IMG/VR virus record: IMGVR_UViG_2695420565_000002
DNA length: 6,439 bases
Source: a virus
Lineage: Duplodnaviria; Heunggongvirae; Uroviricota; Caudoviricetes
Reading direction: 5' to 3' (one strand)
The notes beneath the pieces are model-generated. The model searched no databases. It was not told where the DNA came from and worked only from the letters and a program-made list of their open reading frames with translations. Shown here piece after piece: positions 1 through 6,439 of this stretch (position 1 is its first letter; every line of letters begins with the position of its first letter). A program made the position numbers and the translations under genes.

Positions 1-34
1 GGACTTCAGGGGAAAAACGAGTATTTTTAGTCAT
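1..34 (-). CDS. IS3-family transposase OrfA, N-terminal 11 codons only (partial, continues beyond window)
   Basis: ATG at 34..32 (minus) preceded by AAGAGGT SD with 8-nt spacer; translation MTKNTRFSPEV; sits inside the IS terminal region. Confidence 0.65.
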   Translation of the reverse strand, partial: MTKNTRFSPEV

Positions 35-88
35 CCTGTTTACCTCTTTCTCAGGAAGTTTAGTCTCCAGGATTCCCGGGGCGGTTCA
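1..88 (-). mobile_element. Left end of an IS3-family insertion sequence (IS629/IS1203-like), partial; rest of element lies beyond the window start
   Basis: Minus strand reads 5'-TGAACCGCCCCGGGAATCCTGGAGACTAAACTTCCTGAGAAAGAGGTAAACAGG-ATG from position 88 downward: a TGA-initiated terminal inverted repeat followed by an SD and an ORF start encoding MTKNTRFSPEV, which I recall as the N-terminus of IS629-group OrfA. Identification is from memory, not a search. Confidence 0.75.
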
Positions 89-560
89 GTAAGGGGGTAT
101 TTGTATTTATTGTCTTTTGTATATTGTCTTTTGTGTTTAGCTGACTTGGCTTATACCCATTAGCCGACTTGGCTAATGTTTTATTAGCTGTTTTAGCTAA
201 TGTTAAGCTGTCCTGGCTAATCCACTGAGAAACCACCTTGTTCACTCCGATTTTCACGCCATCAGCAATGAGGAATTTACGCTCAATAAGCTGGCGCTTG
301 GCAGCGCAAACATGAGTGTGATGAATACCTGTCATGGCTGCTATCTGCGTGTTTGTGAGTCGATCCATCGGCTTATTGAATCCGTATGTCTTGCGCATGA
401 TAGCGAGCATCACCTTCAACTGCCGGACGGTTAAATCAGCCATCAGCAGACTGTCGGTAATCTCGTTAGCAACGCGCATGAAACCATCTTCGGTATCTGC
501 CACGCGATGCTCCACGACCTCCAGTTGAGGCCTGTAATCAGCTAACTTAACGACGCCCAT
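60..560 (-). CDS. O: Lambda O-like replication initiator, N-terminal iteron-binding domain intact; C-terminus replaced by IS-derived codons (truncated by IS insertion)
   Basis: 166-aa ORF; motif LTVRQLKVMLAIMRKTYGFNKPMDRLTNTQIAAMTG resembles lambda O N-terminal domain (LTKRQFKVLLAILRKTYGWNKPMDRITDSQL, recalled). Strong SD AGGAG 6 nt upstream of ATG at 560. Iterons lie inside the coding sequence as in lambda O. Codon 158 spans the IS junction at 88/89, so the last 8 residues and the stop (62..60) are encoded by the IS inverted repeat. Confidence 0.8.
   Translation of the reverse strand: MGVVKLADYRPQLEVVEHRVADTEDGFMRVANEITDSLLMADLTVRQLKVMLAIMRKTYGFNKPMDRLTNTQIAAMTGIHHTHVCAAKRQLIERKFLIADGVKIGVNKVVSQWISQDSLTLAKTANKTLAKSANGYKPSQLNTKDNIQKTINTNTPLLNRPGNPGD
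98..136. repeat. AT-rich region of the replication origin, with a 13-bp direct repeat TATTGTCTTTTGT at 108..120 and 122..134
   Basis: Directly visible; strongly T-rich on the plus strand, immediately flanking the iteron array, matching the iterons-then-AT-rich layout of ori-lambda when read in the O coding direction. Confidence 0.55.
137..220. repeat. Origin iterons: four imperfect 17-18 bp dyad-symmetric repeats (TTAGCyGnyTTrGCTAA)
   Basis: Copies at 137..153 TTAGCTGACTTGGCTTA, 160..176 TTAGCCGACTTGGCTAA, 184..200 TTAGCTGTTTTAGCTAA, 203..220 TTAAGCTGTCCTGGCTAA; spacing 23, 24, 19 bp; embedded in the O-like gene. Confidence 0.7.
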
Positions 561-708
561 GTTTCACTCCTGCTTTGGCTAGTCTGTAAACACCAACAAG
601 GCGTTCTACGAACGCCCTGTTATTTGCTGCGGCTACCACTAATCCCTCAGGTGAATCAGGGTGTCGAATCTCTTCTTTTTCCTGGTATTTCTTACGACGT
701 TTTGTCAT
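547..708 (-). CDS. Small basic hypothetical protein (53 aa) between cII and O, not in the supplied ORF track
   Basis: ATG at 708..706 preceded by AGGAG with 5-nt spacer; translation MTKRRKKYQEKEEIRHPDSPEGLVVAAANNRAFVERLVGVYRLAKAGVKHGRR; stop TAA at 549..547 overlaps the first codons of the O-like gene, suggesting translational coupling. No homolog recognised. Confidence 0.4.
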   Translation of the reverse strand: MTKRRKKYQEKEEIRHPDSPEGLVVAAANNRAFVERLVGVYRLAKAGVKHGRR

Positions 709-717
709 AATTACTCC

Positions 718-785
718 TGTAGATTGATCCAGTCTTTCTACATCAGGCCTCGAAGAATTCGCCGTTCTTCGGGGCTTTTTCTTTT
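718..785 (+). ncRNA. Candidate OOP-like antisense RNA ending at an intrinsic terminator inside the cII 3' end
   Basis: Plus-strand hairpin with 11-bp stem 747..757/765..775 (one G-U pair), 7-nt loop, then TTTTTCTTTT 776..785; antisense to the last about 40 nt of cII. Possible extended -10 TGtCATAAT at 703..711. The 5' end is a guess. Confidence 0.4.
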
Positions 786-1024
786 GTCAGGTAATCGGCA
801 AGCCGCTTAGTCAATTCAGCCATTTCATCGTCTTCGATTCCGTATTCCAGAACAGCAAGCATCATGCTTACCTGCGAGAAGAAACCATTCTTCCATCGGC
901 TTACCTGATATTCAGGAACCCCCATTGCTCGAGCGAATGTCTTCTGCCCCATCAGTGCCAGTTTGTTCAGCAAGGCCGACTCGATGCGAGCCGCTTTCTT
1001 GCTTTTAGTTGCAATAGTACCCAT
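743..1024 (-). CDS. cII: Transcriptional activator CII (lambda cII homolog)
   Basis: 93 aa; RIESALLNKLALMG...QVSRWKNGF...FSQVSMMLAVLEYGIEDDEMAEL parallels lambda CII (RIESALLNKIAMLG...QISRWKRDWIPKFSMLLAVLEWGVVDDDMARL, recalled). SD AAGGA 8 nt upstream; located downstream of cro and nutR as in lambda. Confidence 0.9.
   Translation of the reverse strand: MGTIATKSKKAARIESALLNKLALMGQKTFARAMGVPEYQVSRWKNGFFSQVSMMLAVLEYGIEDDEMAELTKRLADYLTKEKAPKNGEFFEA
747..785 (+). terminator. Rho-independent terminator, antisense to cII 3' end
   Basis: GCCTCGAAGAA-ttcgccg-TTCTTCGGGGC followed by TTTTTCTTTT. Confidence 0.7.
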
Positions 1025-1472: not shown

Positions 1473-2126
1473 ATGAAATGGTATGAACTGGCTAGATCCA
1501 GAATGAAAGAGCTCGGCATAACTCAAGAGAAGTTAGCTGAAGAGCTTGGTATGACGCAGGGTGGAATTGGTCACTGGTTGCGCGGATCTCGTCATCCATC
1601 TCTTGACGAGATTGGTGTGGTGTTTAAATACCTTGGTATTGATAACGTCTCATTCAACCACGACGGTACATTTTCACCTGTTGGCGAATACTCATCTGCC
1701 CCCGTTAAAAAACAATATGAGTACCCTGTTTTTTCTCATGTTCAGGCAGGGATGTTCTCGCCTGAGCTTAGAACCTTTACCAAAGGTGATGCGGAGAGAT
1801 GGGTCAGCACAACCAAAAAAGCCAGTGATTGTGCGTTTTGGCTTGAAGTTGAAGGTAATTCCATGACCGCGCCAACAGGATCGAAGCCAAGCTTTCCTGA
1901 CGGGATGTTAATTCTCGTTGACCCCGAGCAGGCTGTTGAGCCAGGTGATTTCTGCATAGCCAGACTTGGTGGTGACGAGTTTACCTTCAAGAAACTGATC
2001 AGGGATAGCGGTCAGGTGTTCCTACAGCCACTAAACCCGCAATATCCAATGATTCCATGCAATGATAGCTGTTCCGTAGTAGGGAAAGTTATCGCCAGCC
2101 AGTGGCCTGAAGAGACATTTAGTTAA
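1473..2126 (+). CDS. cI: CI-type prophage repressor with LexA/S24-like autocleavage domain; hybrid (novel N-terminal HTH domain, lambda-type C-terminal domain)
   Basis: From [38 protein letters not shown] onward the protein matches lambda CI C-terminal domain almost residue for residue (recalled); N-terminal 80 aa differ and carry an XRE-type HTH. Start chosen at ATG 1473 (AAGGG 7 nt upstream); ATG 1467 is an alternative. Confidence 0.92.
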
Positions 2127-6033: not shown

Positions 6034-6198
6034 ATGAGAGGACTTGCATACAATCCCGGCATTCTTCCGGCAGAAATGATTATTCGCCAACGCGTAAAGC
6101 CAATGCCATCGAGAGAGGAATTGCTTAAGAGAAATAGTTTCTGTTCTGTTAATGACAACAAATATCTGAATGCAATGTGGCGGAGTGGGAAAAAATGA
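6034..6198 (+). CDS. Hypothetical small protein (54 aa)
   Basis: TGAGGAA SD 6 nt upstream of ATG 6034; the track's longer ORF (5851..6198) overlaps the upstream gene and lacks an SD at its start. Confidence 0.45.
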
Positions 6199-6320
6199 CA
6201 ATCACAAAACAACGTGTAGAAGAAATCATATCCCGCATTGAAATGTATGGGCATGGTGCAGGGTATACCGCTGACGAGGTTTATGACCTGGCTGTACTGG
6301 CGCTGAATTTATCAAATTGA
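6195..6320 (+). CDS. Hypothetical small protein (41 aa), possibly a gene fragment terminated by the IS terminal TGA
   Basis: ATG 6195 overlaps the upstream stop (ATGA); [41 protein letters not shown]; its stop TGA 6318..6320 coincides with the first three bases of the IS inverted repeat. Confidence 0.4.
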
Positions 6321-6439
6321 GGTAGCCTGAGTTTAACGGACACTCCTTCCTGAAATAGAATGGCATCAGAAGGAGCTAATAATGAGCAGAAAAACCCAAC
6401 GTTACTCTAAAGAGTTCAAAGCCGAAGCTGTCAGAACGG
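6318..6439 (+). mobile_element. Left end of a second IS3-family insertion sequence (IS600-like), partial; continues beyond window end
   Basis: TGAGGTAGCCTGAGTTTAACGGACACTCC... terminal repeat starting with TGA, then AAGGAG SD and orfA start MSRKTQRYSKEFKAEAVRT. The SxEFKxEAV motif is typical of IS3-family OrfA HTH proteins; the IS600 assignment is from memory. Confidence 0.7.
6382..6439 (+). CDS. IS3-family transposase OrfA, N-terminal 19 codons (partial)
   Basis: ATG 6382, AAGGAG SD with 6-nt spacer; MSRKTQRYSKEFKAEAVRT. Confidence 0.7.
   Translation, partial: MSRKTQRYSKEFKAEAVRT

Follow-up and report, generated by a model that had tools for sequence, protein, structure and literature searches.

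The window analysed here, 6439 bp of DNA, corresponds to the full length of draft contig CYCZ01000107.1 (E. coli assembly GCA_001283765.1), read as its reverse complement. Two different multicopy insertion sequences bound this contig, IS629 on the left (1..88) and IS600 on the right (6319..6439), and the genes lying between them are those of the early region of a lambdoid/P22-like prophage. A sister contig that differs by one mismatch (L004) extends through an intact integrase gene to sbcB, which the prophage adjoins. The genes and sites discussed below are collected in Table 1, together with the rearrangement junctions that were found at the same site in other sequences. The small ORF that overlaps the start of the initiator gene has a counterpart, annotated as a hypothetical protein, at the matching position in L001, L012 and phage ST104 (orf27). 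At the other extremity of the window, positions 6319..6439 match the left end of IS600, an element of the IS3 family, with 100% identity; the TGA with which IS600 begins overlaps the stop codon of a 47-aa ORF (6177..6320), and the same ORF is 105 aa long in L004, where this insertion is absent. On the plus strand, positions 745..777 can form a strong terminator-like hairpin, a stem of 14 pairs with a T-run after it; it is antisense to cII, at the 3' end of that gene, and located where the oop terminator is annotated in P22; a scan of the window at Rfam gathering thresholds, this hairpin included, gave no match.

Table 1. Features of the window, and junctions clustered at the right edge of the origin (positions are window coordinates, or nucleotides of gene 18 where marked nt)
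Feature	Position	Strand	Details
IS629 left end (IS3 family)	1..88	-	nt 1-88 of the 1310-bp element; same orientation as the O-like gene; contig ends within the IS
IS629 orfA start	1..34	-	ATG at 34..32, MTKNTRFSPEV..., broken off where the contig ends
IS629 left terminal inverted repeat (IRL), 25 nt, TGAACCGCCCCGGGAATCCTGGAGA	64..88	-	23 of 25 positions match the right-end repeat of the reference copy
Truncated gene-18/O-like initiator	60..560	-	166 aa: 157 native codons and 9 IS-coded, stop TAA at 62..60
G/C-rich right edge of the origin, retained left part, GTAAGGGGG	89..97	.	from comparison with intact sequences
AT-rich tract of the origin	98..136	.	20.5% GC; contains TTGTCTTTTGT twice
Four iterons, AGCYGNNNTRGCTWAT	139-154, 162-177, 186-201, 206-221	.	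each a TAGC...GCTA dyad; spacing 23, 24 and 20 nt
Phage_rep_O winged-helix DNA-binding domain, coding region	222..506	-	PF04492, aa 19-113; wholly retained
53-aa ORF	547..708	-	overlaps the initiator gene at its 5' end; conserved upstream of intact alleles
cII-type activator gene	743..1024	-	PF05269, E 4e-30; upstream of the initiator, in the same rightward early operon
Prophage genes on one side: N, S24-type repressor, cro-like HTH protein, cII, 53-aa ORF, minus-strand replication-initiator gene			
Prophage genes beyond the repressor gene: Ral, Rad52-type recombinase, SSB, anti-RecBCD protein			
Junction, left part kept	to nt 471		L015
Junction, left part kept	to nt 472		IS629 junction, window and L008
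Junction, left part kept	to nt 478		L016, L020, L021, L023; four different partner sequences
Junction, left part kept	to nt 480		L018
Junction, left part kept	to nt 481		L022
Junction, right part kept	from nt 468		L009
Junction, right part kept	from nt 476-479		L025
Junction, right part kept	from nt 478/479		L024

The initial annotation, made from the letters of the window, had taken its first 88 positions for the end of an IS629-like element. When reverse-complemented, these positions are identical in 88 of 88 nucleotides to the annotated IS629 of the Stx2a phage Stx2_499 (LC567824.1), and the mobile_element boundary annotated in that record coincides exactly with window position 88. The check that had been suggested, an alignment of positions 1..90 to IS629/IS1203 ends, returned a perfect match over 1..88, so that an IS match is present where its absence would have spoken against the proposal. 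The window copy also carries the terminal 5'-TG of IS629, and its ATG aligns with the annotated OrfA start of the IS629 in L002, about 54 nt inside the left end. Such IS copies are labelled by PGAP as 'IS3-like element IS1203 family'.

On the prophage side of the junction, similarity to the intact alleles of complete E. coli genomes begins exactly at position 89, with 99-100% identity, and IS629 is joined at nt 472 of an initiator gene of the P22 gene-18 type. Across the break, the intact allele reads CCGCCCCCGTTAGGGG up to the point of joining and GTAAGGGGGTATTTG beyond it. The first three or four nucleotides of the retained edge (GTA or GTAA) are a candidate for the left-side copy of a target duplication. 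The 166-aa product is encoded on six draft contigs, coming from NCBI assemblies and from Logan assemblies of separate runs, and all six end inside the IS. Two NCBI assemblies and the Logan sets ERR137813, ERR137818 and SRR7358276 arrived independently at the same junction. The idea that IS629 targets sequences resembling its own end was considered and rejected, the nearby match found by eye being of only 7 nt (CCGCCCC), which is too weak.

As had been read from the frame at the outset, the initiator ORF runs into the IS: after the native residues ...NTNTPL it enters the element by 28 nt, adding LNRPGNPGD before the stop codon. Intact alleles continue instead with ...PLPPNGGGDGQ... (more fully, ...NTNTPLPPNGGGDGQ...) up to 273 aa. 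The truncated protein falls in a cluster of 1543 members whose representative is 273 aa long, as are 12 of the 15 members listed. The Phage_rep_O match is strong (E 1.9e-33, 115 bits against a Pfam cut-off of 28.7) and lies upstream of the break. The loss of the C-terminal domain, also claimed by the initial annotation, is borne out, since the native residues end at 157 in a protein whose intact homologues have 273 aa; the comparison with these homologues stops at window position 89, where none of them has its natural end.

An AlphaFold model of an intact allele, built on a 21-sequence alignment (mean pLDDT 61), gives moderate confidence to a winged-helix region at aa 41-108 and low confidence to aa 109-174, the stretch that corresponds to the origin DNA, and predicts with confidence a helical C-terminal domain at aa 175-269 (pLDDT 82-88). 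Since the break at codon 157/158 falls within the low-confidence stretch, the whole C-terminal domain (about aa 175-269) is removed, and what remains of the product (aa 1-157) is the winged-helix domain with the greater part of the flexible linker. The C-terminal 116 aa are found unchanged behind unrelated N-terminal/iteron segments, which marks them as a separate module. Foldseek searches against the PDB gave only weak matches (E > 0.03), to winged-helix regulators of the MarR type, and no match for the C-terminal domain; a PDB sequence search with the intact protein gave no match either. In the window, a C-terminal domain with a helicase or loader gene next to it is lacking: the frame leaves the gene after codon 157, and since intact alleles keep both the domain and the helicase, the window holds a disrupted member of the family.

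The origin lies within the gene of its own initiator, as is the rule in the O/gp18 family, and consists of four iterons followed by the AT-rich tract. The iteron sequence is absent from the rest of the 6.4-kb window; four copies were found against 0.04 expected, and none of 200 shuffled sequences reached four. Iterons and AT-rich tract are collinear with the rep_origin annotation of P22, and in the alignment the break falls 13-14 bp inside the right boundary of that feature, so that the origin is split and not merely neighboured by the IS. IS629 comes between the AT-rich tract and the greater part of a small palindrome, CCCCC-TAAC-GGGGG. The initial annotation had drawn the AT-rich region as we find it (98..136) and the iterons at 137..220, only 1-2 nt off. 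Its statement that the initiator-binding sites are kept agrees with the retention of all four iterons, the predicted binding sites. It had also placed the IS beside the origin, which is correct insofar as the element abuts the AT-rich tract and needs amendment insofar as it sits inside the origin of the P22 type.

On sequence comparison, the gene is of the P22 gene-18 type and does not belong to a lambda O/P module. It shares 94% DNA identity with gene 18 of phage ST104, and its protein shares 51% amino acid identity with P22 gp18 in an alignment that reaches aa 265-269. With P22 it has in common the PF04492 N-terminal domain, four intragenic iterons followed by an AT tract, an alignable C-terminal domain, a DnaB-type helicase gene overlapping the stop codon, and, at the AT tract, a block in which about 57 bp are identical, AAACACAAAAGACAATATACAAAAGACAATAAATACAAATACCCCCTTACCCCCTAA. 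It differs from P22 in being cut after codon 157 and in the sequence of the iterons, here of the TAGC-N8-GCTA type, so that the specificity of the origin differs as well. P22 gene 18 contains four repeats of about 20 bp (PMC8022706), and the P22 record annotates a rep_origin inside it; P22 genes 18 and 12 are not singly exchangeable with those of phage L and can be swapped only as a pair (PMC8022706). Within the shared block (window 98..154, about 1925..1981 in the P22 sequence L011) the AT tract and the C-runs are identical, whereas the flanking iterons and the proteins have diverged; the block has the appearance of a conserved cassette, or of a joint where origin-specificity modules have recombined. 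In the lambda record, too, recombination points are marked in the AT-rich tract.

Similarity to lambda O is restricted to the N-terminal domain (42% identity over aa 17-149) and to the arrangement of four iterons followed by an AT tract in the middle of the gene. The C-terminal domain shows no similarity to lambda O in BLASTP, where only aa 17-149 align. All intact relatives examined have as their next gene, overlapping the stop codon, one for a 458-aa helicase of the DnaB family (PF00772 and PF03796) and of the P22 gene-12 type, and not a lambda P gene. The gene is therefore not a lambda O in the strict sense of a P-recruiting initiator, its C-terminus being unlike and its partner carrying PF00772 and PF03796, and the O-P picture of lambda applies by analogy and not by homology. 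Thus, of the picture drawn in the initial annotation, an 'O-like' initiator without the domain that in lambda recruits the P/DnaB complex, the O-like N-terminal domain stands; the partner is a DnaB-type helicase of the gp12 type and the C-terminus does not resemble that of lambda O. Moreover, the 'P/dnaC-like gene' expected beyond the IS has to be replaced, because intact relatives carry a DnaB-family helicase gene there.

These results show that IS629 is joined to the initiator gene at nt 472, at the edge of the origin of a lambdoid/P22-like prophage, and that the initiator is truncated; from this we infer a replication defect, and regard the reading as a whole as very probable. The lost domain would couple the origin-bound initiator to the DnaB-type helicase of the phage, by analogy with lambda O-P and with the 18/12 pair of P22. 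On induction, the truncated protein may still bind the iterons and would fail to load the helicase, and the prophage would be unable to initiate its own replication unless a co-resident prophage supplied the same type of initiator. The IS would come between pR and the helicase, nin, Q and late genes, if present, and add at least 1.3 kb to their distance. In that case the description suggested in the initial annotation, cryptic and replication-defective, would apply. The finding is relevant to whether the prophage can still be induced and spread and also to typing, since IS629 sites serve as lineage markers; taken alone, it is one more way in which a resident prophage gets disabled, that is, ordinary prophage damage.

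Searches with both halves of the protein returned many chimeras that change at ...TPL, TPLPP or TPLPPN. A 14-nt stretch of the gene (nt 468-481), at window 89..97 and at the equivalent site in L009 and L014-L025, contains at least 12 rearrangement junctions; they comprise the IS629 junction in two backgrounds, seven deletions that keep the left part and three that keep the right part. In the numbering of gene 18 used here, TTA occupies nt 469-471 and is followed by C472-C476, T477, A478, A479, C480 and G481-485. The centre of the palindrome lies between nt 478 and 479, and nt 478 is the last native nucleotide of four junctions with different partners. Among the partner regions, identified directly or from their neighbours, are gp20, tail genes, a gtr operon, ninB, ninD/E and a capsid gene, which indicates large prophage deletions. 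Three of the deletion junctions are also present in independent assemblies, and the only junction whose intact partner is cleanly readable has a microhomology of 2 nt. Among aberrant products that keep at least 157 native residues, most break in codons 157-161 and two in the remaining 110 codons or so, a distribution in which clustering at 90% identity may hide distal junctions. Two variants of 182 aa (P0029 and P0048) were not counted as independent inactivations: they have a frame shift within the C-run (codons 156-159) in predicted proteins, and the assembly behind P0029 (FRIK920) is an older draft.

We tentatively suggest that the right edge of the gene-18 origin, with its AT tract and palindrome, could be a fragile site that repeatedly seeds the inactivation of prophages. 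Speculatively, the DNA might break where the origin bubble ends, or at a hairpin that forms at this edge; one broken end might be held by the initiator-iteron complex, and the other might be resected and rejoined by microhomology. As single-stranded DNA the hairpin of the palindrome is weak (-5.4 kcal/mol, z -0.6 to -1.8), so that its energetics alone do not support the hairpin mechanism. If the suggestion is true, lambdoid prophages would decay as a result of their own origin activity, which would also bias the landing sites of IS elements; a recurrent breakpoint would link the decay of prophages mechanistically to the replication origin of the phage itself and would offer a precise DNA position for studying illegitimate recombination in lysogens. 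Two of the junctions, L009 and L015, would also fit IEE-type deletions beside a former IS629 (PMC9943667), because both are large deletions with an endpoint in gene 18 that lies 1-4 nt from the insertion point. Most of the other clustered junctions differ from this scheme in lying a further 6-9 nt along the gene, in the middle of the palindrome, and no IS is left in L009 and L015, which makes the link to IS629 excision circumstantial.

A second, smaller cluster of chimeras breaks between ...AKSAN and G, near window 161/162 (codon 133/134, close to the boundary of the third and fourth iterons). P0121 joins the C-terminus of an IS3-family transposase at this point, P0126 and P0122-P0125 break at the same place, and the internal deletions P0002 and P0009 resume at NGYKPSQ.

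Other readings of the junction differ widely in probability. The open reading frame, considered by itself, would allow the 166-aa protein to be a natural short form of the initiator. We give this virtually no credence, because IS629 supplies the stop codon and the 9 residues that precede it, so that the position of the IS boundary (window 88) refutes the idea, and because the ordinary homologues listed have about 262-291 aa, while the short ones examined are chimeras, frameshifts or partial proteins at contig edges. Because the window is a complete draft contig and a multicopy IS lies at each of its ends, one might also suspect a chimeric contig end produced by reads collapsed on the repeat; such an artefact is very unlikely, since the same junction was assembled independently in two NCBI and three Logan sets, and a contig ending in a repeat still reads the true junction between unique and repeated sequence. 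Somewhat less far-fetched, and still improbable, is the idea that the truncated initiator and the iterons have been retained for some benefit, such as titration or blocking of the replication machinery of incoming phages that share this origin type. In its favour, neither the DNA-binding domain nor any of the four iterons is damaged, many independent rearrangements retain exactly this N-terminal part, and plasmids carrying lambda oop and iterons block the replication of rep-lambda phages (PMC3349717). However, the gene lies downstream of the repressed pR and the repressor gene is intact, so that it should be silent in a lysogen; a fragile site is the simpler explanation for the clustered breakpoints, and signs of selection are absent.

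The far side of the IS bears on a more serious alternative. A simple insertion predicts, beyond the right end of IS629 (...CCCGGGGCGGTTCA), the expected target duplication of 3-4 bp (TAC or TTAC in the orientation of the gene) and then CCCCTAACGGGGG/CCCCTAACGGGGGCGG... leading into the helicase gene. With either a 3- or a 4-bp duplication allowed, this right junction was found in none of the metagenome contigs searched. In complete genomes, a synthetic query composed of the IS end and the gene gave full-coverage matches only in three O157 strains, where IS629 lies elsewhere. Ten predicted read-through proteins (two guessed alleles, both duplication lengths and several guessed contig offsets) were absent from the protein collection, and a search with the C-terminal fragment did not return the partner contig and exposed instead the clustered junctions described above. 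The junction may thus possibly derive from an IS629-linked deletion or inversion, in which case the 3' part of gene 18, the helicase gene and perhaps the late region would not lie beyond the IS, although we regard this as the minority reading. Every contig that bears the junction stops in the IS, and L009 and L015 are large prophage deletions that end 1-4 nt from the site. Moreover, matching duplications are found at only 21 of 47 IS629 sites in O157 genomes, fewer than half (PMC3271280), which makes a rearranged junction a real possibility, and IEE-dependent excision of IS629 yields adjacent deletions of a few nt to more than 40 kb (PMC9943667). On the other hand, the negative searches say little, resting as they do on guessed alleles and contig ends, and the left arm of the prophage is intact to int and sbcB in L004, which fits a simple insertion and suggests that the event is fairly recent.

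Whichever form the far side takes, the joining of IS629 to the initiator gene is an event of a well-known kind. IS629 is the commonest IS of O157-type E. coli. Lambdoid prophages host 62% of its copies in O157:H7 (PMC3271280). The window copy resembles the IS629 of EHEC prophages (isoform IS1203) in its terminal 88 nt, which are identical and include the inverted repeat and the orfA start, and in having a lambdoid prophage as target. The instance at gene-18 nt 472 is nevertheless new: the left junction occurs in 0 of 5426 complete E. coli genomes, and an exact 34-mer scan of species-representative genomes gave no match, yet the junction recurs in the last 700 nt of L008, a contig from run SRR7358276. 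There the same nucleotide is joined in the same orientation, in an O157-type prophage with another cII/immunity region, and the inverted repeat of the IS differs by one base (GGAAAT versus GGGAAT). The 472 nt of the gene beside the junction are identical in the window, in L008 and in the intact O157 allele, the differences being located only further upstream and at that one base of the IS end. The shared junction may reflect an independent insertion at the same nucleotide, or recombination upstream after a single insertion. Three complete O157 genomes carry IS629 in the same orientation between cII and an intact gene 18 (L013, which is strain 7784; Z1835; Z1836), and in strain 7784 the downstream helicase gene is annotated as frameshifted.
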